The notes beneath the pieces are model-generated. The model was not told the origin of the DNA, searched no databases, and saw only the letters and a list, made by a program, of their open reading frames with translations. Below, piece after piece: positions 2,907 through 24,927 of a DNA stretch of 25,944 nt; the first letter of the stretch is position 1, and each line of letters begins with the position of its first letter. The DNA is taken from assembly GCA_020137815.1 (NCBI GenBank), contig WFME01000022.1, positions 1 through 25,944 on the forward strand, given 5' to 3'. The DNA is from Hormiphora californensis. Taxonomy: Eukaryota; Animalia; Ctenophora. The position numbers were made by a program, and so were the translations under genes.

Positions 2907-3002
2907 TACATTTAATTTTTCATGCAATTTTGACGTCAACTTGGTGATACAATTACTCATTTCTAATTAGTCATTATATTTATTGTTTTATCAATTCTCA
3001 GA

Positions 3003-3573
3003 AGGGCCTAAAAACCCAACTTTTATTTAATTATTTTGAACACTTCATCGTAACAAGCATGCTATTGGAGTCCCAAAACATAGGTTCACGCCCCACCCCG
3101 CCCAATGTGAGCCCCTCAAGTTGGGGCCAGTGGGGTCACCTTGTAAACGCGCTTGTGTACTCTTGAAATGCTAACAATATGATCCTCTCTAAAATTTGAA
3201 GTTTTGGGGTGAAATTTAGCCTTGTGCTTCGAGGGGAGTACCAATTTTCTTGTCTCTGTATTCTGGTAATTTTCTCTCTAGTTTTGATATGCTTAAATAA
3301 TAATAATTGATGAGAAAGATTATGAAATCTACAAAACACAAGGATAGTTTTCTATCCTAAATTTTATATTTGAGAGAGGATCATATTGTTAGCATTTCAA
3401 GGGAGTACAAGCGCATTTACAAGGGGAACCCAAATGGGCCCCATACTGAGGGGCTTCCCCTGGGCTCACATGGGGCGGATGGGGCGTGTACCTATGTTTT
3501 TTGGGACTCAATAGCATGCTTGTTACGATGGAGTGTTCAAAATAAATAAATAAAATTTGGGTTTTTAGGCCCT
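3003..3573. mobile_element. Foldback/MITE with ~200-bp imperfect TIRs
   Basis: AGGGCCTAAAAACCCAA...TTGGGTTTTTAGGCCCT; inverted homology extends to ~3200/3365. Right flank is TTAA, left TSD not preserved. Confidence 0.8.
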
Positions 3574-3782
3574 TTAATGTCTACTGATTTACGTCCTCAT
3601 GCTCAACCTCCTGAAATACTGCTTCAACTTGTTCCTGACTATATCGCCTTCTTTTCTGATGTTTGCTGGAACACGTACGACTGTGGACTCTCCGGATGCA
3701 GATGTGGACTCTCCGGATGCAGATGTCTGACTAAAAATTTGTATCATAATGATTGATTTAGCAAACCAAGTATATCATAGTA

Positions 3783-4972
3783 CAGGGTGTCCCACTGTCT
3801 TTGCGTGACCTGTGATTTTGGGTGATGAGTGGGTTCCATTCAAATGCTCATAACTCATCGAAAAATTGGTCAAAACGGCTCAACCAAAACATGTGTTGTA
3901 GAGAATTGTCAGGCGAACATCTGGGTACAAAGATTGATGTTCCAAGTTTTACACAACCGTCAGATATATCGTCTTAAGTCAAAAATACGTGTTAATGAAA
4001 TCCGACCGGGGTTCACGTTTTGAAAAATTCACATATGCAAAATTGCTCGTCAGGATCACATTGCATCCTCTAAGAGCTGTAGAAAATTGTCTGGCGGTCA
4101 CTTTGGTACCCGGGTTTTTGTCCAGCTTAATGTTTAGACTGTCTTATGACTGTCTAAAGACGAAATTCAACCAACATTTTTGAGGGGATCACGTGTCATC
4201 AACAAATGGGAAAATGGTTTGAAATTATAAGCAAGGCTTCATTGGAATCGTCTAAGGTCAGTTTGATACACGATTTTATCCATAGCTCTACGTTTTAGTT
4301 GCGTTATGACTGTAGGGACATAAAGATTTGTCTACGCTGAGTCTAGTTGGTATCGGCTCACAACGCCTAATTAGGTGGCAGGTGTCGTGTGTAATCCCAT
4401 GATAATCAGCACATATCGTCTCAATTCATCTAGACACTTGACAGGGTTGTTTATGACGATTTGGCAAGCCCCTGTTAATGTGTAGGATACGCAAGTGGCT
4501 ATCTCAACCCTATCATGCACTAAGATGTTATCAAGCAGCAATGAGCTTCATAACAGGGCAAAATGTAATGCGATACTGAGACCACTTTGTGGAAAATTCC
4601 AGTTCTGACATTCATAAGACACTCTAAACATTGAGCAGGACAAAAACTCGGGTACCAAAATGACCGCCAGACAATTTCCTACAACTCTCATGAGGGAGCA
4701 ATGTGATCCGAGCAATTTTGCATTTGTGAATTTTTCAAAACGTGGAATCCTGTCGGATTTCATGAACACGTATTTTTGACTTAAGACGTATATCTGACGG
4801 TTGGTAAAGACTTGGAACATCAACTTGTACCCAAATGTCGCCTGACAATTCTCTACAACACTGTTTTTGGTTGAGCGCCGTTTGACCAATTTTTCGATGA
4901 GTTATGAGCATTTGAATGGAACCCACTCATCACCCAAAATCATAGGTCACGCAAAGACAGTGGGACACCCTG
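3783..4972. mobile_element. Tc1/mariner-type non-autonomous DNA transposon, family B, ~370-bp TIRs
   Basis: TA|CAGGGTGTCCCACTGTCTTTGCGTGACC...GGTCACGCAAAGACAGTGGGACACCCTG|TA; lies in the last intron of the Harbinger gene. Confidence 0.92.
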
Positions 4973-5208
4973 TAAATCTCCCTCATTCGACCCTTTATAT
5001 TAATCTTACTTGTTTTGGTCTCTAATGTAGAACTCGTCTCGAGCTCCGACATCTTCTGGCTGAGATTGATGTAGTTGAAGAGAAGAACCGCACACTCCAC
5101 AGTGGCGTTAACAGCCGTCTCCTCTCCAACTAGGCTATCTAGCACAGGGAAGACCTGTACTAGTTGCCCGAAGGCACATTCGACAGCCATTCTGTTGCTG
5201 AAACGAAG

Positions 5209-5798
5209 TGTAAACATATTGAGACCCTCTGTCTCAATAAGTTATACTTCTAGATAATATGCATATCGGGTTCAGTAAGAGACACAATTTGCGGGTGGGA
5301 GAACTAAGTAATACTAAAATCACAGAGACAAAGCTTTCATCACACTATAACACACTCTCGCTAGCTCACTCGAGTGGAAGCTGACTGGGCTAGACTGGAG
5401 GGCGGAGGCAAAGTCTGAGGGCAACCAAAAAGCCCCCTAAGACCCTAAACTCCTCCCCTTATATAGTCTTGGTTGCACAACCGTCCTCCTGTGGTTGTGC
5501 AACCAACCGCTGGGGTTGCGCAACCATCACTCTATGGTTTCACAACCATCCATGTGGTTGCCACAACCACCTCCACATGGTTGTGCAACCAACCTCTCTG
5601 ATCTATCTTCTCTCTCTCGGCCGACAGAGTACCACACACACTACATGTCATATCATTTCCGGCCAAGAGATGGAGAGTATAGAAACACAGGCTCATAGGA
5701 ACATGAAAGTCACGAACAACCACAGCATCCCCGACAGGGGTTCGAGGTAGGATAAGTCAGAATGCTGCAAGCGTGGGAAAAGTAGCCCCACGCTTACA
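5209..5798 (-). repeat. 3' LTR
   Basis: Direct repeat of 8040-8629; differs by about one substitution and about eight 1-bp indels. Confidence 0.95.
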
Positions 5799-5810
5799 CT
5801 CCCACACTCT
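5799..5810 (-). other. Polypurine-tract-like plus-strand primer site
   Basis: Minus strand AGAGTGTGGGAG abuts the 3' LTR; imperfect (two T). Confidence 0.55.
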
Positions 5811-7279
5811 GAACAATATCCTCTCCCGTCGAAAACAGCTGATTGCTCGAACCATCAGGTTCCCACCGCCACTTCCGAAAAAATATCAAGTACAGCAAAT
5901 CCAAGCTCACAGTCAAGTCCTCAACTCGAGTATTGAAAGTTCTACTCAAATTATAATACACACTAATGACTAACTAACCCACATGCACACGAACTCACAA
6001 ATTTTAAAATACCTCTAAAGATTTATCTAAAAATTGAACTTAAAGTTCCTCTAAAAACGTTCAATTTAAACTCCAACCAAAATTAAAACTATCTCTTCAG
6101 CCACTCACAGCATTGCGTCCTAATAGCTATCCACCCCGACCACATCATCAAACTTTTCTCATCTTGAATTCTTATTCAATTAAGATTACGCCACAGCAAA
6201 AACATTCACACTAATTATTACTATCTGAAGTTGATGATGTGGTCTTAGTGGGGTAATACTATGACCTAATTAAACAAGGTCACTGCTCACTCTGCCCAGC
6301 AACAAATTTACACTCATGTGAGTGATGCTCGGGTCAGTCTATTTCAGCGCTAACACTGGGAGCAATGGGAGTATTCTTGTCCAAGAGATGATGCAGCCCC
6401 GGTCAAAATTGCCACGCCTTCCACAATCAATGTCCAGGTTTGGAATAGGTATGATGTGATGTTCCTTCCATCCGGGTTGTTCTGTAGCATTCATGCAGAG
6501 GCACCCAATATTGGAGGGATAGGCCAGGTCGCGGGAGGAGGATCGTGATCATTGATCCTCCAAACCGATGAAGTAGAATCGTAGACGGGACCGTATGGAC
6601 TTGTACGGAACCTGCTGACAGCCAAAATGTATAGTCTTTCTTTGGAGCTTAACTAGGCAGCCCCTCTGTTCACGACCTTTCTTTGACCTATCTCTCCATT
6701 TTCAAATCCTGATCCATCAAGTTTGAATACGCAGGGTCTTACCATCTGATTCCAGAACCATCCATTCCTCAGCTGAAGGCGATCGACATAGTTCATTCGA
6801 AAGCTACTGATAATTGTTTTGCGACATCCAGTAAAAGTGGCGGGCGTTAGATCAGCTACAAAGATCCATCATTGGCTGATATTTTATTGTCCTTTGCCTC
6901 CACACACATTTAACACACAGATTCTCCCACCCATTATTGGTTATATATTACAAAATTAAAACCCTTGCCTAAATAAAATGTTTCCCACTCTTAATCACAT
7001 CCACACGTTACCCACAAACTAAGCAGTATACTCACACAGAGCAATCACACCACTGCAACTGCCATCTCACACAGAGTAATAGCACCACTGCAGTAGCTGT
7101 GAACATCAATAATCTTCGAATCGATTGTATCAAACGGGGGCCACAGCACACGCCGAGAGCCGCAAACATCCCGTCACATGACGTATCACATCATCCATCA
7201 CACATGATCAAGTCAGTACCCATTGATTTTGGTCACCAACCGTATGACGGTACGAGAGAGCCATCACTAGTCCAATCAA

Positions 7280-7701
<422 letters not shown>

Positions 7702-7962
7702 TACCACTCCCCACAATGTCCAAAAAGTGAGAGGAGCCATGATACTACCTCCCACCGAAATTTCCAGAAGAAATATTATTACAACGTAGTGCCCCCCTCG
7801 AGGGCACAGCCCTAAACGGGAGGGGGAGCATGGGCGGGGTTCACAACAACAAGAGGAGCGAAGAGGGGAAAGGAAGAAACGAGACAAGAGAAAGACAGCT
7901 TGAAGAGATAAGAAGAAGAGATGATAATAATTAGCCTGCCCGGGCTTGGCTTGTGAGGACGG

Positions 7963-8038
7963 GCCCGGTTAGCTCAGTCGGTAGAGCACGAGACTCTTAA
8001 TCTCGGGGTCGCGGGTTCGAGCCCCGCATCGGGCTCCA
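7963..8038 (+). tRNA. tRNA-Lys(CTT), full length with encoded CCA; its 3' end is the element's PBS
   Basis: GCCCGGT TA GCTC AGTCGGTA GAGC A CGAGA CTCTTAA TCTCG GGGTC GCGGG TTCGAGC CCCGC ATCGGGC T CCA: 76 nt, all four stems pair, anticodon CTT at 7996-7998, intact A and B boxes. Confidence 0.97.
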
Positions 8039-8039
8039 T

Positions 8040-8629
8040 TGTAAACATATTGAGACCCTCTGTCTCAATAAGTTATACTTCTAGATAATATGCATATCGG
8101 GTTCAGTAAGAGACACAATTTGCGGGTGGGAGAACTAAGTAATACTAATATCACAGAGACAAAGCTTTCATCACACTATAACACACTCTCGCTAGCTCAC
8201 TCGAGTGGAAGCTGACTGGGCTAGACTGGAGGGCGGAGGCAAAGTCTGAGGGCAACCAAAAAGCCCCCTAAGACCCTAAACTCCTCCCCTTATATAGTCT
8301 TTGGTTGCACAACCGTCCTCCTGTGGTTGTGCAACCAACCGCTGGGGTTGCGCAACCATCACTCTATGGTTTCACAACCATCCACTGTGGTTGCACAACC
8401 ACCTCCACATGGTTGTGCAACCAACCTCTCTGATCTATCTCTCTCTCTCGGCCGACAGAGTACACACACACTACATGTCATATCATTTCCGGCCAAGAGA
8501 TGGAGAGTATAGAACACAGGCTCATAGGAACATGAAAGTCACGAACAACCACAGCATCCCCGACAGGGGTTCGAGGTATGGATAAGTCAGGAATGCTGCA
8601 AGCGTGGGAAAAGTAGCCCCACGCTTACA
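8040..8629 (-). repeat. 5' LTR
   Basis: Adjacent to the PBS/tRNA; TG...CA termini. Confidence 0.95.
8290..8422 (-). promoter_or_regulatory. LTR U3 promoter: TATA box plus six phased 12-bp palindromes (second copy at 5459-5590)
   Basis: Minus strand GACTATATAAGGGG; GGTTGCACAACC-type motifs start at 8303, 8325, 8346, 8368, 8389 and 8411. Confidence 0.7.
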
Positions 8630-9101
8630 GAAGTAAACAACATTACATGTCTCAAACATTGAACATAGCCTCGTGTTATATATTCAAATAACGCCCATGA
8701 ATATAATATATGAAACAGGAAACTTAACTTCATACTTTAAAAACTTACCCACTCAATGCTTTATTGAATGGCAGCTCGTCCGCTATTTCCGTTTTAAATG
8801 GCTTCATAATAGTGTTCCTCAATGGGAAGGCGTCATCTGCCAGAAAGTATATAATAGTATGGGATTTTTCCAAATATCTCCTAAAAATGAGAATTTTTTA
8901 AACCGCATTTAAATATGCATACTTATTTTTAGTACACGATGTTTGATTATCACTTATAACAACACATTTTACCATTACGCCCCCATTGATTTAAGTCACT
9001 ATTCAGTGATCTCACCACCACTCGGCTCACACCCTATTGACTATCCTCAACCCCCATTGACTCCCCCTGTTGACCCCCCCCCCTCATCTCCTATTGTATC
9101 C

Positions 9102-9707: not shown

Positions 9708-10065
9708 TACCGGTACTCAGAATCGACGACTGCAAGTAGCACAGTACTGTGAAAGTGTTTATAGTTATAATTCCTGGAACCATCACCAGGATAATTTTGT
9801 ATACGACAGTGTTTTCCATCGATCGCACCGATAACGTGAGGGAATCCCCATCGATTCTCGATCCGTCAGCTATCTTTTTCCAATCGTGGACATCTTTTGG
9901 TCGGCAATCGACAAGTTTCTCCACATTCCCGATAATGATTTTCAAAGTCTGAAAATATAGCGGTATAGGTACGCGTGTTCTCGAAACCATATAAGGTTGA
10001 TGGCAATATCAAGAAGCTACGTGAAATTTGAAGACCGTAAGTCTCAGGAATAGGCGATATATATA

Positions 10066-10924
10066 CAGTCGGACCCCGATTTAGTGGCATCCTCGGGGGG
10101 AAAAAATCCTGCCACTAAATCAGGGTGCCACTAAATCGGGGAGATCCATATTTGGCCCATAAAAATCTATTTTATGCCCAAAATGCTATACTAAGACTAA
10201 AAACACCTCTAACTGTTATATGCAATATTCATGTATTGATGACATGATAATTTCTGATTAGAAATAGAAAACTTTAAAATAATTTTTTCAAAAAAAATGT
10301 GAAAAATTTTCTAAGTTATACCAGCCCGTCCGATTTGTGTTTCGAATCGGTGCAGCTTACTGGATGTCCTGTCTAATTAGCAGGTTCGAAACGAACCGAT
10401 TCGTGATACCATGCCGAATCGGGGCACCCTAAGCGGGTGAGGAAGTATCAAAATTTCAAAATAACTTTTTCTCTCAAAATTTATGGGGAGCACCGATCAA
10501 AGCATTGACAATCGTACTGTAAAAGTTTGCAAAAAATTTTTAAAAGTATACCAGCCACTTCCGAATCGTGTTTCGAATCGGTGCATCTTATCGCATGTCC
10601 TGCTGCTAATTAGACGGTTCGGAACGTGATCCCCATCGAATCGAAATCTTGACTCTTGGTGACCTTGTGATTCAATGGCCCCATGGGGATCACGTATCGG
10701 TTCGTTCCGAACCGTCTAATTAGCAGCAGGATATGCGATAAGATTCACTGATTCGAAACACGATTTGGACGTGGCTGGTATTCCTTTGAAAAATTTTCAA
10801 AAAAATTTCAAAAAAAATTTCAAAAAAAATTCACAAAAAAATTCAAAAAATTTTTGGGGGAAAAAATCGTGCCACTAAATCGGGGTGCCACTAAATCGGG
10901 GGCCACTAAATCGGGGTCCGACTG
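10066..10924. mobile_element. MITE family A, long variant (859 bp)
   Basis: Same CAGTCGGACCCCGATTTAG TIRs and TA TSD; interior has a ~100-bp unit twice in direct (~10317, ~10547) and once in inverted (~10683-10781) orientation. Confidence 0.9.
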
Positions 10925-10971
10925 TATAAGTCATTGTACAATTTGTTGTGAAATTTCCCATTAGTATTGTA

Positions 10972-11048
10972 CAGTCGGACCCCGATTTAGGGCCCCCCGA
11001 TTTAGTGGCACCCCGATTTAGGGACAGGATTTTTCCCCCCGATTTTTG
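10972..11048. mobile_element. MITE family A, one-ended fragment
   Basis: TA|CAGTCGGACCCCG..., near-identical to 2739-2811; no right TIR. Confidence 0.8.
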
Positions 11049-12276: not shown

Positions 12277-13667
12277 CTAGTATGTATGGTACAGATCTGA
12301 TGAAGAGCCATCATTCTTGTTCCTTCCTCTGTAACCCCGAATAGAACAAGTTATGGAGCGGACCATTGAAAATGATAGACGAACACGGAGGTATCGAATA
12401 CACTCCTGGTAGGTATAGCCAGTTTTCCGCGATTTCTTGGTTGCGAGTTGCTTCAGAGTTCTGCTGAACTCTTGACCAAGTCCACCGGTCGTTGACATAA
12501 CGAGGGGAGTAAAAGAAGCTTTTTCCACCTCGAGAATGCGATGTAGATAGTTCTTCTTCTTCCCTTCCTCGTGCTTGATATACGTTTGAGGGATATCCTG
12601 AGTCTCATTAGACTGTGCCCTTGGGTTAAAAACCCTTACGTCAAAATAGGTGCAGTCCATTGGTCCCCAGAATCCCCTCGTTCGAATGTCAAGGCGCGCT
12701 CCATCCTCTGTAATGGTCCCAGGTGGTAGTTTTGCTCCTCTAACTTCCAGTAGGTGGGGTTCAGCCTTAGTGTCGTAGCACACTTTGTCCAGCTCCGCAG
12801 TTAGAAAGTCTCGAACGCAATCGTGTCTGACCGCAACAAATCCCCCGCGTTTGCATGACATGGAGTGATCGTTGCTGTTTTCCTCCCCACAAACGCACTG
12901 TGTTGCTCTCGGCTGTCCCACTAGTGGGAGATCGTATCGTGCTGAGATTGAATCAAAGAACTCCTGGCGATTGAGTGTGAGCTTCAATGACTCTAGGGGT
13001 AGACAAGTGAGCCATGTTGATGCCCCTTTCTCGCTGAGTAGATCAAGGTTCCTCGCCTCTCTTGGCTTGATTGACTGAACGATTTTTTCCCTGCATTCCT
13101 TGTGGTAATTAGCTTTGCCAGTTTTGATGCTGAGGGCTATGGCTTTCTCAGTCTCAGGATTCGGTATATATTCTACGTCTTGTTTCTGGATGGCCTTCTG
13201 AAGTTCTTCTGTCGCTTTCAGCAAGTTCTGGTACTCCAGGTCAGCCATGTGACAGGGGTTTTCGACACCCAGCCCTCCCATTCTCGTAGGAAGTGCCATT
13301 ATGGATCGTAGCGTATCAGGAATGAATGGTTGTCCTGTGATAGTCGGGAGGAATTTCTCTCTGATTGCCTTCTCGATGGGCTCTAGTTCTGTAGCGATCC
13401 CTGGTGTTGTCCGCAGCAAGTAGTTCCACTTCTTACTCAACCCGATTGTGTAGGCTGAATAGGCTAGTTGGGGTTCGTTGCAGGCAATGTCGCTCAGTTG
13501 TTCTATCTCCTCGACCCATGTCTTAACTTCATTCTTCACCCACTCCTTCATTCCATCATCGCTCCCAATGAAGGAACCCAGGTAACGGTGACCAACAGTT
13601 GTTATGTTGACATCTGGAAACAGTTCCTTGGCTCTTTCCTCCTTGTCTTCTTTCACAATCAGCCAAC
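12277..13667 (-). mobile_element. CRE-clade non-LTR retrotransposon, 3' part (RT thumb, CCHC-type finger, restriction-like endonuclease)
   Basis: WLIVK...HRYLGSFIG...ALPTRMGGLG...CVCG..DHSMSC..GG...RHD..RD...RLDI...FDVRV...K...Y...FTPLVMSTTGGLG; open to the stop. Confidence 0.9.
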
Positions 13668-16589
13668 GCAAGGAGCTTAAGTCCAGCAGGTGATACAGGC
13701 TGGAAACTCGGTCTTATAAGAGACTATGTTACGCAAGAGAAAACTCCCATAGTAGCCATTGCAGTAACTGAGACTTGGTTTAAGGGTTATCATTCTGATG
13801 CTCAGGTTCAGATACCAGGGTATGACGTATATAGAAGTGATAGAGAAAACCGAGTTGGCGGAGGCTGTGCCTTATATGTTCAATGTTCGCTGGCTGTTTC
13901 TGACAGTATATATTTTGCGAGTGCGAATAACAATATGTGTGCTGTCTATGTTGAACAAATAAACACTATTTATGCTGCTGTGTATCGCTCCGAGTCAAGT
14001 GTGTTAGACTTTCAAAAGCTGATGGACAATTTACAGACTTTTATAGATAAACACAGTGATGGACGATTATCAGAGGTCGTAATTTCTGGGGATTTTAACC
14101 TTCCTCTTTTTCAGTGGTCTGATGGTTCGTCTGTCCCGGTTGATCAGCCTAACTACAATGTTGTTGCTGATTTCATGGACGCAAACTTTCTATCCCAAGT
14201 TGTTGAGGGCCCTACAAGAGGCAACAACACGCTAGACCTTGTGTTTACCAACCGTCCAGAATATTTCAGCGATATTGTTATTACGGATGGGGGTATCTCG
14301 GACCATTCCTGGGTATCATGTGAACTATCTTTCAACCCTCTCGGTCCTAAAAGTTTATTTCTTCCCAGTACACTTGAGGGTTATCGTCAATTGGATCTTC
14401 AGTCGGCTGACTTCACTAGTATTGATGCGGAACTAGCGGCTACTGATTGGGATCGAATGTTGACGGAATGTGAAGAACTGGGAGACGAGGATGGTTCCCT
14501 TTTTGTGGAGGCCATGCGTGACAAAGTGTTCAAAGTTGTAAAGTCACACTGTCGGTTGAAGAAAATCAGGAAAGAGTTTGTGGACAAAGAACTGAAACAC
14601 TTAACCAGCAGGAGACGGAAATTGGTTAAACGAAAGGACGATTCAAACAAATGGAAATCACTGATGGACTGTATTATTGGAAGGATAAAGGACCATTTGA
14701 TATCAAGGGACAAGAAGGCAGAGAGGAAGGCTGTCGACGTAATTAAAGAAAACCCGAAGTACTTTTATTCACACGTCAAGAGGAAATCAAAGGTCAAATC
14801 TTCAGTTGCACCCCTTGAGCGTGAAGATGGTTCACTAACTGTGGATCCTCAAGAGAAGGCTGGATTACTCCAACACCAGTTTTCCAGCGTTTTTAGCGAC
14901 CCTTCCGCTATCGACCCCGCAGAGGCAGCTGGTAACGTGGAGGACCTTGGGGAGATCCTGACAAGTTTGGAGTTTTCCCAGGAATGTATCCAGACTGGCT
15001 TGAAGGAACTTAAGCCATTCTCAGCATCCCCTCCTGACTGCATTCCTTCTTTTGTTCTGAAACAGTGCAGCAGCAGCCTGGCATACCCGATTTGGATGTT
15101 GTGGAACAGGTCATTTGAAGACGGATCTGTCCCTAGTTGCTTAAAGCAACAGTTCATAACACCATTATTCAAGAAGGGGGCTAAATCGAAACCTGTGAAC
15201 TATCGCCCAGTGTCTATAACAAGTCACCTGTCTAAAGTGTTTGAGCGGCTGGTGAGGAAACGGATCAGTGACTACTTGGACGAGATGGAGTTGCAGAGTG
15301 ACACTCAGCATGGGTTTAGGAAGGGGCGCAGTACCATGACACAGCTACTAACCCATGTTGACATCATCCTATCTGATCTATGCGGTGATCAGGAAGTTGA
15401 TGCTATCTACTTAGATTTTAGTAAAGCATTTGATTCCGTGGATATCAATGTTCTGCTAGCTAAATTGAGGCGATATGGTATTGGAGGTCAACTCCTTCAG
15501 TGGATCAGTGCGTGGATCCTGGGCAGGAATCAGTGTGTAATGGTGGATGGAGTGAGGTCACCCTGGGCCGAGGTACTTAGTGGGGTTGCCCAGGGTAGTG
15601 TGCTCGGACCACTTCTTTTCCTCATATATATTCTTGATCTGGAGTCAGTGCTAGACGGTAGCATGTGTCTAACTTTTGCTGACGATACTAAGTTGGTAAA
15701 AGCTATTTCGGATATGACTAGCCAGGCGTGCCTACAGAACGATCTTTTAAGAGTGGCAGAATGGGCAAAGAAGAACAATATGAAGTTACATGAGGATAAA
15801 TTTCAGCTCTTGAGCTATAGTCTGAATAAGTCTGCTATCCTCAGACAGTTTCCTTTCGCAGCTGAAGTGTTTACATATACTACAAGCTCAGGTGTGCAGT
15901 TGACCCCCGAACCTGATGTTCGTGATCTGGGTGTCCAGATGTCTGCAGATGGGTCATGGACGAGGCACATTTCTATCATAGTGCGGAAGGCTTCCCTCTT
16001 GAGTGGCTGGATATTCAGCGTTTTTCGGGACCGTTCTCCGGAGGTTATGGTACAGCTTTTCAAGTCCTTGGTCAGGCCTATTCTTGAGTACTGTTGCCTA
16101 GTCTGGAACCCTTCCAAGGCTGGTGATATCAAGGCTATTGAGAATGTCCAACGTTGTTTCACCAGACGTCTTGATGGTATGCAGGGTCATGACTATTGGG
16201 ATAGACTGAAATTGCTCAATCTTATGTCCCTTCAGCGTCGGAGACAGCGCTACATTCTGATTCATGTGTGGAAGACGATTCATGGTTTTGTACCTAACTC
16301 TGCCAACCTAGTATTTCAACAGCACGCTAGACTGGGTATGCGGATAGTCCCACCACCTTACCCCTATAGAGCAGAAACGAAACGAGCTAATCAATTTCAC
16401 TGCTCATTTGGTCCAAGAGCAGCTCATTTATGGAACACTCTACCAGCTGCTGTCAATTCTTGTGTGAGCTTGAATCAGTTCAAATCATCATTGGGCAATT
16501 ACTTGACAGGATTTCACGATCGTCCTCCAGTCAGAGGGTACCCGCCACTTCCAAATGACCTTTCGCCTCAATGTGCTGTGCTGTGCTGA
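13665..16589 (+). CDS. CR1/L2-group LINE ORF2 (APE endonuclease + reverse transcriptase), uninterrupted, truncated at EN motif I
   Basis: Frame is open from AAC GCA AGG AGC TTA (NARSL) via VTETWF, YRSDR...GGG, GDFN, TRGNNTLDL, SDH, NYRPVSIT, QHGFRKGRS, YLDFSKAFD, GVAQGSVLGP, FADD. Confidence 0.93.
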   Translation, partial: NARSLSPAGDTGWKLGLIRDYVTQEKTPIVAIAVTETWFKGYHSDAQVQIPGYDVYRSDRENRVGGGCALYVQCSLAVSDSIYFASANNNMCAVYVEQINTIYAAVYRSESSVLDFQKLMDNLQTFIDKHSDGRLSEVVISGDFNLPLFQWSDGSSVPVDQPNYNVVADFMDANFLSQVVEGPTRGNNTLDLVFTNRPEYFSDIVITDGGISDHSWVSCELSFNPLGPKSLFLPSTLEGYRQLDLQSADFTSIDAELAATDWDRMLTECEELGDEDGSLFVEAMRDKVFKVVKSHCRLKKIRKEFVDKELKHLTSRRRKLVKRKDDSNKWKSLMDCIIGRIKDHLISRDKKAERKAVDVIKENPKYFYSHVKRKSKVKSSVAPLEREDGSLTVDPQEKAGLLQHQFSSVFSDPSAIDPAEAAGNVEDLGEILTSLEFSQECIQTGLKELKPFSASPPDCIPSFVLKQCSSSLAYPIWMLWNRSFEDGSVPSCLKQQFITPLFKKGAKSKPVNYRPVSITSHLSKVFERLVRKRISDYLDEMELQSDTQHGFRKGRSTMTQLLTHVDIILSDLCGDQEVDAIYLDFSKAFDSVDINVLLAKLRRYGIGGQLLQWISAWILGRNQCVMVDGVRSPWAEVLSGVAQGSVLGPLLFLIYILDLESVLDGSMCLTFADDTKLVKAISDMTSQACLQNDLLRVAEWAKKNNMKLHEDKFQLLSYSLNKSAILRQFPFAAEVFTYTTSSGVQLTPEPDVRDLGVQMSADGSWTRHISIIVRKASLLSGWIFSVFRDRSPEVMVQLFKSLVRPILEYCCLVWNPSKAGDIKAIENVQRCFTRRLDGMQGHDYWDRLKLLNLMSLQRRRQRYILIHVWKTIHGFVPNSANLVFQQHARLGMRIVPPPYPYRAETKRANQFHCSFGPRAAHLWNTLPAAVNSCVSLNQFKSSLGNYLTGFHDRPPVRGYPPLPNDLSPQCAVLC

Positions 16590-16703
16590 TGAGTGTGAGT
16601 GTGAAGGGATAGTTTTTCAACTTGATTTTATTTAGGTGGACCCATTCAGGGAAGGCCTGTTTCTTTATAAATAAAACTTTAATTGTAAACTTGTAAACTT
16701 GTA
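13668..16703 (+). mobile_element. Young 5'-truncated CR1/L2-group LINE inserted antisense into the CRE element
   Basis: ORF above, short 3' UTR, AATAAA and (TTGTAAAC)3 tail; AAC at both junctions; removing it restores CRE ...PLKSWLIVK. Confidence 0.92.
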
Positions 16704-17660
16704 AACTTTTCAAAGGCTCAGGGTAGTATCCAAAGCTTGGACCCTTCTCTTTCACCTTGCTCCACCACTTCTCGATAATGGCTAGAGTGCCTCCGCCACC
16801 TGCATCATCTGCATAGAGGATCTGAAAGAGTTCATCATCTAAAGAATTTTCAATGTTACGGAGAGAATTAGCTAATGGCATAAGGCCACATGCATACATG
16901 GGCATGGCAGTGGTATCACCCTGTGTTGTTCCTTCTTTTGATAGTAGGGTGTCATGTGAATTTCCATCAGATATGAATAGTTTGGCTGGCAAGCCGTAAG
17001 TGTTAGATAAATACATGCTAAAATCACGACATAAATAATCAATATTGCTTAGAGCTATCTTTCGGTTTAAAGAATTAAAGGCATTGGACGCATCAATTAA
17101 CAGTATACATTCACATTTATCATCATTAAATTTTTCTCTTAAAGCATGCACTGCAGCTTCAACACCACTCTTCAGTCCCCCACACAGTTGTATTGGGGCT
17201 GTTGCCTCTATATGTCAGGTTTTAGGACCGTTACAACAACTTTCCCCACGAGCCTTCGAATCACTTCACCCACACCGATCGGCCTGATACCTGCTGGCTT
17301 TTTCGATAAGGGAATCAGTCTGCTAGCAACGAATGCTTCAAGGTAAATGGGATCAGTTTTTTCAGTTGCCAGTTTGGTTGCACAGGTGGCAATCGCCCGT
17401 GCTAGATCATACGATTTGGGTTTGAACTTCTTGCACAGCAGAATGTGTTTCCAGAGTCCAGCGTCAGCTCCAGACGGACCACCTGATCCCGTAAGGTGTT
17501 TGGCAGCACGGAGCACTGATTCAGGGGTAATACTGGAGAAAATCACGTCGTTGGTGGGCAGCACAGGGCCATGAAGGAAGTAAGTTGAATCAGCCGGCTC
17601 AGGGTGTTTAAGTTTGAGCTGATTGACAACTGCCGAGGTGATAGGAACCGGTGCTACTCC
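16704..17660 (-). mobile_element. CRE-clade element, RT part (5'-truncated, one frameshift near 17210)
   Basis: SGGPSG, RLIPLSK, GIRPIGVGEVIRRL, QLCGGLKSGVEAAVH, LLIDASNAFNSLNR, EGTTQGD, YADD, GPSFGYYP. Confidence 0.9.
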
Positions 17661-17664
17661 ACAT

Positions 17665-18130
17665 GCAGAGTTTTTGATAGCTCGGAGTTCAGTTTTAAAA
17701 ATTCGGACTGATTCAAGCTATGATTTTCGTCCGAGCGAAAAAGACCCTGCGCGCGTGCGCGGCGTAAACTTTGGTTTTGCGCGTTACCCAGATTTAACGC
17801 CGCGCGGCCCAGAACTGAGTTTTTATTTTTTAGCTCACGAGCGCAGCTGTGAATTCACATTTTTTTTTCGTCTCAGGGAAAATTGAAAAGCGCTTCACTA
17901 AAGTCCGTTTCAAGCGACTTGACCCGTAATTCTTGGAATTTGGCGCATTGCGCGTGTATTTACAAAGGGGAAATCCTGAATTTCCAGGAATCTCAGGTCA
18001 AGTCGTTTGCCAAGGACGTCCGTCGCGTAGTGTATACCAGGAGTGGTGAATTATTGAGCCATTCTTATGAGGAGGCTCGCCCACCAATCACAGCTTAGAA
18101 CGGCTCTTGCGATCCGCGCGTTTCTCCCCT
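17665..18130. repeat. CpG-rich unclassified segment, probably a transposon end or internal region
   Basis: Many GCGCG motifs and a CCAAT box between two LINEs; no termini identified. Confidence 0.25.
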
Positions 18131-18133
18131 TAT

Positions 18134-19958
18134 CTTGATAAACTTGATAAACTTGATAAATAAACTTCATTACAGAATCGTAAACGGTGTCAGTCTTTCA
18201 GCATCCCCCTTTTGCTCGAACCTCCAAAACCCAGTCCATGATAGAATTGTTGTTCCGGGTAGAATAACCCTTCACAGGTGGATTGTCAGGGAAGTGGTCC
18301 AGCCAACGGCCCAGCAGGATCTTGAACGTGTCTAAGGTCACTGCTGTATTAACCTCTTTCGGTAATGTGTTCCATAACCGAGCGGCCCTCACAGTAAAGG
18401 AGTGGAAGTATTTTGTTGAGAATGATTTCTGTGCTCCACTGTATAGGGTAGGTACCTCAGCTCGGATGCCGAGCCGTTGATGATGGTAAAACCGGGTATT
18501 CGTGCTGTTTGGTGCTGCACCATTATAGATTTTCCACATTTGTATTATCGTATATCGCTCCCTGCGACGTTGCAATGACATCAGTCTTAACATTTTTAGC
18601 CTTTCCCAATAGTCAAACTGTGCCATGTTATCGATCCTTCTGGTGAACTGTCTCTGGATACTTTCCAGAGCTTGAATGTCCCTAATCTTGTAGGGGGACC
18701 AGAGGGGAGAACAGTATTCTACTTTGCACCTTATGAGTGACTTGTAGAGTGTCAGCATAGTGGTGACTGATCTGTCCTTAAACGCTCTCAGTGCCCAGGC
18801 AGCCATCCTTCGTGCTTCTGAAGAAATCCTCATGACATGGTCTGTCCAAGAGCCACTGTTTGAGAGAATGATGCCAAGGTCTTTCACAGTATCCGCTGGT
18901 TGTATTTCATTGCCGGCTGGTGTCTCGTAAGAGCTGAACTCATGAGTGAACGGCAGTTCCCGTAGAAGGAATGTTTTATTCAGGGTGTAGTGAATGACTT
19001 CAAACTTGTCCTCGTGGAGTGTCATACAATTTGCTGCCGACCATTCCACCACCCGCTGAAGATCCTCTTGCATTTCTGCCCCTGATGTTTCCGAGTTGAC
19101 GCTCTTTTGGAGTTTTGTATCATCCGCAAATGTTCTGATTTTACTGTGTATCACTTGGCTTTGGAGATCAGCTACGTAGATGATAAAAAGGATTGGTCCA
19201 AGTACAGTCCCTTGAGGGACCCCGCTTTTAACTAGCTCAAAGTTCGATTTTTCACCGTCGACAGTAACTGTTTGGTACCGACCAGTAAGGAAGTCTTTTA
19301 TTCACCTTAGTACTTTCCCTCTAATGCCTAGCTTTTCTAGCTTGGCGATGAGAATGGTATGGTTGACACGGTCGAAGGCTTTTGAATAGTCCAAATAAAT
19401 AACATCAACTTCGTTCCCGCTGTTTAGCTCTCGAAAAATTCTATCCATGTGATCGAGTAGCTGTGTGAGGCAGCTCCGTTGCTTCCTGAATCCGTGTTGG
19501 CTATCTGGTATGAGGTTATTACTTTCCAGGTGTTCCACCAACTTGTTTCGTACAACTCGCTCAAATGTTTTCAGCAAGTTAGAAGTCAACGAGACAGGGC
19601 GGTAGTTAACAGCAAGAGTTTTATCACCACGTTTGAAGATTGGCGTGATGTACTGTTTTTTCAGGTTAGGGGGTGTTATTCCTTCTTCAAAAGACCGCTC
19701 CCAAAGAAGAAAGAGTGGAACAGCAAGAGTAGTTTTACAAGCACTGAGAATTTTAGCAGGGATGTCACCATCTGGTCCGGCAGAGGAAGGGTCAAGTTCT
19801 GAGAGGGCATCTTTGATATCCGCTGACGTAAATGTGAAATCCTCTAGAATCGCATTGGTATCCTCAACCCAAGAGAGACTTTTCAGCAAGTCTCCGCCGT
19901 CTGGATCACTGAAAGCCCGGCAGTACTGTTTTTGCAGGAGTTCCGCTTTTTCAGTTGT
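18134..19958 (-). mobile_element. Second CR1/L2-group LINE, 5'-truncated (RT only), one premature TGA
   Basis: ORFs 19302-19889 and 18198-19154 are one frame joined at KVLR*IKDFL (TGG->TGA); NYRPVSLT, LDYSKAFD, GVPQGTVLGP, FADD; (TTTATCAAG)3 tail. Confidence 0.92.
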
Positions 19959-20004
19959 TAATTAAAGAGAAACAACGATTTTGCAGTACTAATATTCAAT
20001 TAAG

Positions 20005-20174: not shown

Positions 20175-21043
20175 GTTGTTGTTGTTTGTGCCTCCCACTT
20201 CCAATCCCACAGCTGCTTCATGGTCCAGCGTGACCAGATCATCTACCCGAAGGTGAGATCAAGATTCATAGATATGTATCCCAGATCGGTCAGCTTTCGT
20301 TTCCTGAGGTCACAACACCAGGTAAGGTGTCGTTTCCCCAGGAGGCGGAGCTTCCTTCTCCATGACCTCTGGATCATAAAGCATGTTGCTGTAGTTTTGC
20401 ACCTGTACTTTATTGTACAGGTCTTGGGTTTCACTCATAACTGGGGTTCCCTTTATAAGAGATGTAGCTTTGGACAGGATGAAAGCTGCCTTTTGACAGA
20501 GGTTACTTTCATTTTTGCGTACTTACCCTCTGGTTTAACGAACCAGTACATCCCGTTTGGGTTAACGGGCAGGGGTTTTGGCCCCTGTGGGTATTACGTC
20601 CCCTCCGATCTTGCTGTGTTGGTTGAGCACCTTTCCTCCCCATCTTAGCGGAATCGGTTGCTTCTGTTTATTAGTTTTGTGAGTTTGTTTAGGTTAAGTG
20701 TCTCGTTTCGAATTTGTATAATTCTTCGCTTATTGTGACTCACAATAAGAGGTGTCCGAGTTTATGTTTTGCCTCGTCTAGGTCCGGGCAAAACATGAGG
20801 ACATGTTCTGAGTTCTCTTTTACCTTACGGTGTGCAATTTGGTCGATTTTGTTGTCGTTGATTTGTTGGGCTGATGCCAGATTGTTTTGTCCTGATATGG
20901 CTTGTGTTAGTTGTCTTAGGCTTTTTGTCTTTAAACTTTATCATGTTGTACTGTTTGTATAGTTTTGGTAGTACTGCTGTAGTGAAAACGTTATACTTTT
21001 TCGTTTGTATTTCTTTGATGATCGTTTTATTTAAGTGTATCGA
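20175..21043 (-). mobile_element. 3' fragment of a non-LTR retrotransposon (I-group-like CCHC knuckle, structured 3' UTR, (CAA)n tail)
   Basis: HIRTK...PNCTPCKVKENSEHVLMFCP (CX2CX7HX4C; intact in the second copy), hairpins such as CCTGTAC-AATAAA-GTACAGG, and CAAACAACAACAAC at 20188-20175. Confidence 0.6.
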
Positions 21044-21052
21044 CCAAGATAA

Positions 21053-21928
21053 TACCCTCCGTCCCTTCTAAATACCCTCAAAGACCGCTATATACCCCTA
21101 ATAATATACTCGATGCCACTCAGACCGTTCTAGATACCCCTCAGACCCTACTAGATACCTCCAGAGCCAAGAGTCGGCTACAAGATACCACTCAGACTTT
21201 ACTAGATACCCCTCCGACCCTTCTAGATACCATTAGAGCCCGCTAGATATCCCTCAGAATGCCACTGAGACTCAACTGGATATCCCTCAGACTGCACTAA
21301 ATACCCCAAGACCCTTCTAGATACGCCTTAGACCGAATCTTTGCTCTGGACTCTGGAGGTATTGAGTAGGGTCTGAGGGGCATCTCGCACGGTTTGAGTG
21401 ACATCAAGTAGATTCTGAGGGGTATCTAGCACGGTCGGAGGGGTATCTAGTTGAGTCTCAGCGTTATCTTTTAGTCGACTCTTGGCTCTGGAGGTGTCTA
21501 GTGGGCTTTGATGGTATCTATAAGGATCGGAGTCGATTCTGAGGGTTATATAGCGGTCTTTGAGGGTATCTAGAAGGGTCGGAGGGGTATCTAGTCGATT
21601 CTGAGGGCTATATAGCGGTCTTTGGGGGTATCTAGAAGGGTCTTTGGGGTATCTAGCACGGTCTGAGTGGAATCTAGTATATTAGTAGGGGTATATAGCG
21701 GTCTTTGAGGGTATTTAGAAGGGACGGAGGGGTATCTAGTCGATTCTGAGGGCTATATAGCGGTCTTTGGGGGTATCTAGAAGGATCGGAGAGGTATCAA
21801 GTCGATTCTGAGGGCTATATAGTGGGCTCTGAGGGTATTTAGAAGGGTCTAAGAGGTATCTAAGAAGTTCTGATGGAGTTTTATGAAAGTTTAAGGGGGT
21901 ATTTAAGTGGAATTTAGAGTGTATCTAG
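21053..21928. repeat. Foldback minisatellite: ~22-bp unit (CCCTCAGACCCTTCTAGATACC) in two opposed arrays
   Basis: Forward array ~21053-21335, inverted array ~21350-21928; 21053-21110 closely matches the reverse complement of ~21677-21734. Confidence 0.85.
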
Positions 21929-22413: not shown

Positions 22414-23136
22414 TAAGGTGTCGTTTCCCCAGGAGGCGGAGCTTCCTTCTCCATGACCTCTGGATCATAAAGCATGTTGCTGTAGTTTTGCACCCGTACT
22501 TTATTGTACAGGTCTTGGGTTTCACTCATAACTGGGGTTCCCTTTATAAGAGATGTAGCTTTGGACAGGATGAAAGCTGCCTTTTGACAGAGGTTACTTT
22601 CATTTTTGCGTACTTACCCTCTGGTTTAACGAACCAGTACATCCCGTTTGGGTTAACGGGCAGGGGTTTTGGCCCCTGTGGGTATTACGTCCCCTCCGAT
22701 CTTGCTGTGTTGGTTGAGCACCTTTCCTCCCCATCTTAGCGGAATCGGTTGCTTCTGTTTATTAGTTTTGTGAGTTTGTTTAGGTTAAGTGTCTCGTTTC
22801 GAATTTGTATAATTCTTCGCTTATTGTGACTCACAATAAGAGGTGTCCGAGTTTATGTTTTGCCTCGTCTAGGTCCGGGCAAAACATGAGGACATGTTCT
22901 GAGTTCTCTTTTACCTTACACGGTGTGCAATTTGGTCGATTTTGTTGTCGTTGATTTGTTGGGCTGATGCCAGATTGTTTTGTCCTGATATGGCTTGTGT
23001 TAGTTGTCTTAGGCTTTTTGTCTTTAAACTTTATCATGTTGTACTGTTTGTATAGTTTTGGTAGTACTGCTGTAGTGAAAACGTTATACTTTTTCGTTTG
23101 TATTTCTTTGATGATCGTTTTATTTAAGTGTATCGA
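22414..23136 (-). repeat. Near-identical direct duplicate of 20323-21043
   Basis: Only one substitution and a 2-bp indel noticed. Confidence 0.95.
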
Positions 23137-23894: not shown

Positions 23895-24437
23895 ACACTT
23901 GACAGGGTTGTTATGACGATTTGGCAAGGCCCCTGTTAATGTGTAGGATACGCAAGTGGTCTATCTCAACCCTATCATACACTAAGATGTTATTCAAGCA
24001 GCTATGAGCTTCATAACAGGGCAAAATGCAATGCGATACCTGAGACCACTTTTGGGAAAATTCCAGTTCTGACATTCACAAGACATTCTAAACATGAGTA
24101 GGATAAAAACCCGGGTACCAAAATGACCGCCAGACAATTTCCTACAACTCTTATGAGGAATTCAATGTGATCCGAACAATTTTGCACTTGTGCATTTTTC
24201 AAAACGTGAACCCGGTCGGATTTCATGAACACGTAATTTTGACTTTACGACGATATATCTGACGATTGGTAAGACTTGGAAAGTCAATCTTGCAACCAAA
24301 TGTTCGCCAGACAATTCTCTAGAACACTGTTTTTGTTAGAAACCATTTTGACCAATTTTTCGATCAGTTTTTTGTCGTTTAATGGAGCCCGGTCATGACC
24401 CAAAATCGCAGGTGATGCAAAGACAGTGGGCCACCTG
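23895..24437. mobile_element. Family B DNA transposon, right-end fragment (diverged copy of ~4434-4972)
   Basis: Colinear similarity ending CAGTGGGCCACCTG|TA. Confidence 0.88.
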
Positions 24438-24927
24438 TATATCTAAAGTGGACTCTTTATCTACACTTACACTTTGAAAAAGTTTGGATAAAGAGTCCGC
24501 CTTTGCAGACTCCTAACCTCACCCATTTCAACGATTAGGTCACATATACACATGCCCCGTTTTTGTTGTTGTTTAGTCTCCACATCCAGCTTATTCAACT
24601 CCCCATATTTACCATAAACACCGTCATCTCTCACTCTTGGCCGGATCAATTTTCAATACTTTGTCACCATGCACCCAATGATCTGAGAAACAAAGGGCCC
24701 CTCTTAAAAAATACCCACTTAAGAGCCAACTGAAGTTGATATCTCTTATAGATCAAATCCTTGTGTTTCAATAACATCATTCCCCTCCAACTGTGCGAGC
24801 CTCAGATTTTACTATTTATTAATACAGGGTGTTCTCACAAACCACTATTATTTTAATACCTCAACTTTCTCATCACTCACTCAACATCGTTTCACCTACC
24901 AGTACCAATTACCATCCTATCTCCAAT

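Follow-up and report, generated by a model that had tools for sequence, protein, structure and literature searches.

A complete tRNA-Lys at the primer-binding site of a ctenophore LTR retrotransposon, probably copied from the host primer by reverse transcriptase read-through

How does a whole tRNA come to stand where a retroelement keeps its primer-binding site (PBS)? An LTR element of the ctenophore Hormiphora californensis (GenBank assembly GCA_020137815.1, contig WFME01000022.1, positions 1 to 25,944) raises this question; we refer to the whole 25,944-nt stretch that was analysed as the window. According to the original prediction, the element may transcribe its own primer from the tRNA, and a one-off read-through of a host tRNA by reverse transcriptase (RT) was offered as the alternative.

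The element is 3421 nt long (about 3.4 kb), with an interior of 2.2 kb (Table 1). GAAG at both of its outer ends is a 4-bp target site duplication (TSD), and a pair of 590-nt LTRs lies just inside, which bears out that the tRNA sits within a TSD-bounded element. Since the LTR has a TATA box on the minus strand and a purine-rich tract precedes the left LTR, the element lies on the minus strand; the tRNA is therefore antisense to it and constitutes its PBS. Indeed, the reverse complement of the whole tRNA lies 1 nt from the 5′ LTR, with the purine-rich tract at the opposite end. Between the two LTR copies there are 1 substitution and 8 single-base indels; sequencing error probably accounts for the indels, and the insertion would therefore be very young. 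A Pfam search for gag and pol in nine short frames and two stop-read-through frames of the interior gave no match, a possible decayed frame at 6342–6868 had no Pfam match either, and the interior did not match the Gypsy proteins taken from the metagenome loci described below. With direct LTRs, a TSD, a PBS, an inferred polypurine tract (PPT) and no intact gag or pol, the window element belongs among the non-autonomous LTR retrotransposons, as had been thought.

Table 1. Anatomy of the Hormiphora californensis element (5205–8633 of the window)
Feature	Position	Strand	Evidence
TSD, left copy (GAAG, 4 bp)	5205..5208	.	sequence
3′ LTR, 590 nt, TG..CA	5209..5798	-	repeat comparison
Purine-rich tract adjoining the 3′ LTR, likely PPT	5799..5828	-	sequence; function inferred
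Internal region, no recognisable gag/pol; CT/GA microsatellite at about 7280-7700	5829..7962	-	
All-A/T 10-mer, -39 to -30 relative to the tRNA, faintly TATA-like	7924..7933	+	
Complete tRNA-Lys(CTT) with encoded CCA (8036-8038)	7963..8038	+	ARAGORN, Rfam
A box of the tRNA	7970-7981	+	
Anticodon of the tRNA	7996-7998	+	
B box of the tRNA	8014-8024	+	
1-nt spacer between PBS and 5′ LTR	8039..8039	.	
5′ LTR, 590 nt, TG..CA	8040..8629	-	
TATA box of the 5′ LTR	8290-8296	-	
Hairpin close to the U5 end of the 5′ LTR, beside the PBS			
TSD, right copy (GAAG, 4 bp)	8630..8633	.	sequence

Elsewhere in the window, an intact 992-aa LINE ORF with endonuclease and RT (13611–16589, plus strand) lies within 12277–19961 of the minus strand, between minus-strand RT fragments (16531–19961) and a 478-aa minus-strand frame (12277–13713). 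This frame has no Pfam match; by eye we take it to be like the C-terminus of a restriction-like-endonuclease non-LTR element, and 12277–19961 is possibly one non-LTR element inserted in another. The neighbouring LINE RT is, among named matches, most identical to those of the ctenophores Bolinopsis and Mnemiopsis (51–52%); bird matches score higher but at 34–41% identity, and further matches reach 81%. A 723-nt direct repeat (20323–21043 and 22414–23136), whose copies are 99.6% identical and have neither TG..CA ends nor an evident TSD, flanks a partly palindromic 21/62-bp minisatellite at about 21055–21880. MITE-like inverted-repeat elements occupy 1715–1999, 3002–3574, 3781–4974, 10058–11043 and 23895–24444, some of them in at least two copies.

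The tRNA itself proved to be as intact as had been claimed. ARAGORN makes a single tRNA call in the window, and Rfam RF00005 scores the same interval at 68.7 bits (E = 2.9e-13). The copy is 76 nt long, forms 21 of 21 standard stem pairs, has A and B boxes (positions 8–19 and 52–62) that fit the consensus, and runs exactly from position 1 to the CCA, the limits of a mature tRNA. We measured differences and ends against the copy in metagenome locus L002, which is itself a long PBS-type copy and not a verified gene, and to which the ctenophore-type lineage of the host is distant. Identity is 89.5%, and the eight differences (U7-A66, C27-G43, C50-G64, C68 and U73) bear out that the changes keep pairing and that the discriminator is U. 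Three pair-keeping double changes have a probability of about 1e-5 under random decay (200,000 simulations). Since they would so rarely arise by decay, this comparison suggests that the window tRNA is either a real host isodecoder or structurally selected within the element. The 66/68 and 27/43 variants recur among L003, L005, L009 and L017, which favours a copy of the host primer; C50-G64 and U73 occur in 0 of 20 metagenome loci, though the scan pattern permitted them, which tells against it.

These loci come from a scan of metagenome contigs for tRNA-Lys positions 30–76, with CCA and then TG within 3 nt. It returned 20 loci, of which 19 are distinct (L013 and L020 are the same element); having been chosen by exact match over positions 30–64, they show that long copies exist, not how frequent they are. 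One dataset prefix is common to 5 of the 20. The tRNA-Lys copies in the 19 distinct loci are 54–76 nt long and stand before an LTR-like TG. Eight of the 19 have independent evidence of an LTR element: gag, protease, RT, RNase H or integrase sequence lies downstream on the expected strand in seven (by Pfam in L003, L004, L008, where it is weak, L013/L020 and L019; by tblastn in L010 and L017), and L007 has an LTR-like repeat pair. The other 11 were recognized by the junction signature alone, which the scan pattern forced. Copies of 54–76 nt are thus present at the same place in other LTR elements. Outside the tRNA, the metagenome loci and the window element do not match. Among viral contigs, no relatives of the L004 RT were confirmed, and its protein homologues named no clade. 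Two loci hold further insertions. In L012 (4061–4937) the tRNA-Lys copy is split (1–23 / 22–76) where about 230 nt with LTR-like ends have been inserted, and a second tRNA-Lys lies on the opposite strand; in L017 (497–982) a palindromic, MITE-like insert, about 480 nt long, directly adjoins position 1 of a full-length tRNA copy and stands between this copy and an RNase H-like fragment.

Where the copies end is informative. In the 19 loci, the 5′ ends fall at tRNA positions 1, 1, 1, 4, 7, 8, 8, 11, 13, 14, 17, 19, 19, 20, 21, 21, 22, 22 and 23. No end falls at 24–30 although the pattern allowed it (rough P 0.006, assuming uniform and independent ends), and positions 23–29 match in 15–18 of 18 loci. 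Together, these two patterns are better explained by RT stopping in the D arm than by a gradual decay of the copies. Direct joins of the copy to distant element sequence are found in 4 of the 19 loci: to pol in L004, to integrase in L019, to the PPT and LTR start in L013/L020, and to the LTR repeat in L007. Misdirected strand transfer would give this pattern. L003 and L010, by contrast with these joined loci, align in the same order throughout, from U5 across the long copy and on into a common reading frame with 39–41% protein identity. Their copies, of 66 and 69 nt, lie at a homologous position; 17 of 19 unforced tRNA positions (11–29) agree, with the flanks at about 50% identity and a shuffled baseline of 45%. 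In this one pair, the comparison points to inheritance plus refreshment or selection.

We then sampled PBSs without selecting for length, using an 18-nt tRNA-Lys pattern in viral contigs and in prokaryotic genome contigs. The viral contigs gave 38 loci, 27 with an RT/pol match, and 37 of the 38 match the tRNA over 18–23 nt. In the prokaryotic contigs all eight loci match over at most 23 nt (by eye), and four of them have Gypsy proteins; two show 45–50% RT identity to L004 and have sites of ordinary length. Both scans together put 45 of 46 sites at 18–23 nt, the exception being L055, and a long degenerate tRNA-Lys pattern had no match in viral contigs. Long sites are thus exceptional, also among the Gypsy relatives that have 45–50% RT identity to L004. 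The Gypsy elements with tRNA-Lys PBSs in prokaryotic bins (L060, L063 and L065, all from one Dysgonomonas MAG, and L064) are most likely contamination from eukaryotic hosts.

The exception shares a retrovirus-like record with another locus, L054. L054 has a normal 19-nt match; L055, on the reverse strand, is a second copy, 64 nt long, that covers positions 13–76, is altered at A58 and precedes the 122 nt that also come after the L054 site; 268 nt lie between the end of this tRNA copy and the end of the locus. A base change is the known sign of misreading at m1A58. We read L055 as a read-through product of the tRNA type seen in the metagenome copies, with its end in the region where they end too. 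It stands before a repeat of U5-side sequence and looks like a cloned read-through product. In the window copy A58 is unaltered, without the misreading scar seen in L055, a point against read-through there.

What do retroviruses tell us about such copies? In the accounts of primer copying in PMC8599865 and PMC11251516, plus-strand synthesis normally halts before m1A58; without this stop, more of the tRNA is copied, and the tail, having no match, prevents completion. In retroviruses, read-through follows when m1A58 is lost, according to the same accounts, and lentiviral complementarity between genome and tRNA is described as reaching the second RT stop, position 54 (PMC8599865). The 22–23-nt matches in our retrovirus-like loci fit this second stop.

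Against this background, we consider it probable that the window PBS was written by an RT that ran past position 58 and copied the whole host tRNA-Lys(CUU) primer. The read-through alternative of the original prediction is the better fit; its "one-off" qualifier falls, since long copies recur across loci. During plus-strand strong-stop synthesis, RT would copy the primer to its 5′ end, and an invertebrate Gypsy RT may sometimes continue on tRNA-Lys(CUU) as far as the D arm or run off its 5′ end. Maps of tRNA modification place one common RT block at position 26; tRNA-Lys(CUU) has A there and so lacks it. At the second strand transfer the over-long strand could be rescued if it joined sequence inside the element, often with deletion of genes. 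In the window element the junction probably lay downstream of gag-pol, and the absence of genes would thereby be explained. After fixation, a long site would be fully paired by the read-through products of later cycles and hence be harmless, and it would probably be refreshed from the host tRNA in those cycles. Re-templating from the primer had been proposed for the CCA and the last 18 nt. The idea is plausible, and L003 and L010 suggest that its reach extends well beyond 18 nt in some lineages. An ordinary host tRNA would still prime with its 3′ end, and Gypsy-type proteins would be borrowed in trans. The prediction is then that the window tRNA is identical to a normal tRNA-Lys gene of the host with CCA added, and the window element would be the full-length end of the read-through series, with gag-pol lost.

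Could the long site instead be something that the family requires? The helper RT would routinely pass position 58, or the primer would be under-modified, and the family would need the match for plus-strand transfer or for extended pairing. L003 and L010 have kept their long copies next to flanks that are close to saturation, the D arm holds a cluster of 5′ ends, and the matches of retrovirus-like genomes reach the second stop that PMC8599865 describes for lentiviruses, all of which speak for a requirement. However, the Gypsy relatives sampled without length selection have ordinary sites in eight of eight cases, several long copies lie at deletion junctions, and inheritance is backed by one family pair only. 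We consider a requirement unlikely.

The original prediction goes further: the element would transcribe the tRNA by RNA polymerase III (Pol III) and spread working tRNA genes. The perfect cloverleaf, the intact boxes and the three compensatory stem changes relative to L002 would suit such a gene, as would the A/T-rich 10-mer upstream. Exact pieces of the window tRNA had no match in the metagenome or viral contigs, both of which hold little animal DNA, and this too agrees with a variant of the element's own. From the internal boxes and the A/T stretch, Pol III binding to the window copy is possible. However, the 10-mer is at a chance level of 5% (all-A/T 10-mers among windows of the same size in the internal region), and equal perfection is to be expected of any young host-tRNA copy. 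Among the features of a functional nuclear tRNA gene, the cloverleaf and both boxes are present and a nearby oligo-T terminator is absent: the first run of at least four T after the tRNA is at 8792, 754 nt downstream and outside the LTR. Two general facts also count against a self-supplied primer, namely that an encoded CCA hinders eukaryotic tRNase Z and that tRNA-Lys(CUU) is abundant in cells. Finally, 15 of the 19 comparable copies begin at position 7 or later; they have no acceptor stem and so cannot be primer genes. As the reason for long PBSs, a self-encoded primer is not supported, given these truncated copies and the distant oligo-T, and as an account of the window element we find it quite improbable. 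Just as doubtful is the compound proposal that some invertebrate Gypsy lineages have moved the plus-strand stop from m1A58 to the D arm or 5′ end, with the PBS rewritten in each cycle, and that the window copy is in addition transcribed by Pol III as a mobile, CCA-encoding self-primer gene.

That recombination or insertion brought a tRNA gene to the PBS, whether a genomic one or a foreign one that encodes CCA, or else a tRNA-derived SINE, is very unlikely. The window copy is full length, and in the Culex element cqgypsy_1 a tRNA dimer with a 26-nt duplication is interpreted as inserted (PMC3286476). But the window copy has no flanking duplication or poly(A) tail, its CCA end is flush, 1 nt from the LTR, and capture would not yield ends within the D arm. 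A prokaryotic origin of the window tRNA was considered and rejected: among the matches listed, the best phage and plasmid sequences reach 77–83% over most of its length, against 89.5% for L002, and the annotated phage matches listed are non-Lys tRNAs. An assembly chimera of a tRNA gene and an LTR is hardly credible: the eight LTR indels suggest imperfect polishing, but the TSD copies match, the PBS spacing is correct, the CCA is encoded, and the same arrangement is found in unrelated loci.

Related arrangements are described in other systems. Cer elements of C. elegans and Gypsy elements of Chlamydomonas reportedly carry complete or near-complete CCA-bearing tRNAs beside the LTR, and circular retroviral DNA can hold tRNA sequence between its LTRs. 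A self-encoded primer has reportedly been suggested for a Cer element; if so, the idea is already in print. In the literature searched, which mostly left older and subscription papers outside, we found no description of recurrent 50–76-nt PBSs or of a self-encoded tRNA primer.

The nearest likeness is cqgypsy_1 of Culex quinquefasciatus, of the Osvaldo lineage (Marsano et al. 2012, PMC3286476), which has a whole, foldable, CCA-ended tRNA at a Gypsy PBS and a tRNA-Lys primer; reverse transcription of a mature tRNA is what its authors propose. It carries a 149-bp tRNA-Lys/tRNA-Glu dimer with a 26-nt LTR duplication and is coding, whereas the window element has one tRNA and no duplication and is non-coding. 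The Osvaldo rows of the table in PMC3286476 list a 4-bp TSD, as in the window element, and the tRNA-Lys PBS and 4-bp TSD together are suggestive of a Ty3/Gypsy Osvaldo-like lineage, without being diagnostic. In retroviral strong-stop synthesis RT likewise copies the primer to a modified base, and genome complementarity extends to the stop; read-through past 54 is described as a dead end (PMC8599865 and PMC11251516), whereas in the window a full-length copy is fixed, integrated and flanked by a TSD, and at least one pair of distant families among the long-PBS loci shares a long copy. Helenus, Ajax and Cassandra, as characterized in Kojima 2024 (PMC10886601), are also non-autonomous LTR elements with sequence derived from a small RNA, and animal Helenus elements have 4-bp TSDs, often a tRNA-Lys PBS, and a presence in a ctenophore. 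In these elements, however, the tRNA or 5S sequence lies inside the LTR, has a promoter role and is not complementary to the PBS, the PBSs listed are short and the length is below 1 kb. The window element is different from the Cassandra type, as had been recognized: its tRNA is the PBS. Membership in Helenus or TRIMp3 was rejected, as the sole tRNA found by ARAGORN and Rfam lies outside the LTRs and the length is 3421 nt, not below 1 kb.

The window feature is real, and as a single element it is most simply a read-through copy of the host primer. The more interesting result is the wider pattern of recurrent 54–76-nt PBSs with ends in the D arm, in one case common to distant families. Such over-long PBSs would record where RT stops on its primer tRNA in vivo, and this record would reveal tRNA modification in organisms for which there is no tRNA biochemistry. 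They are also a route by which LTR elements produce intact, CCA-bearing tRNA look-alikes, which can raise counts of tRNA genes falsely, and non-autonomous elements may arise when a wrong jump follows read-through. Should a lineage depend on its long site, the textbook 18-nt rule would have a real exception; if the copy is expressed and used, the element would supply its own tRNA primer.
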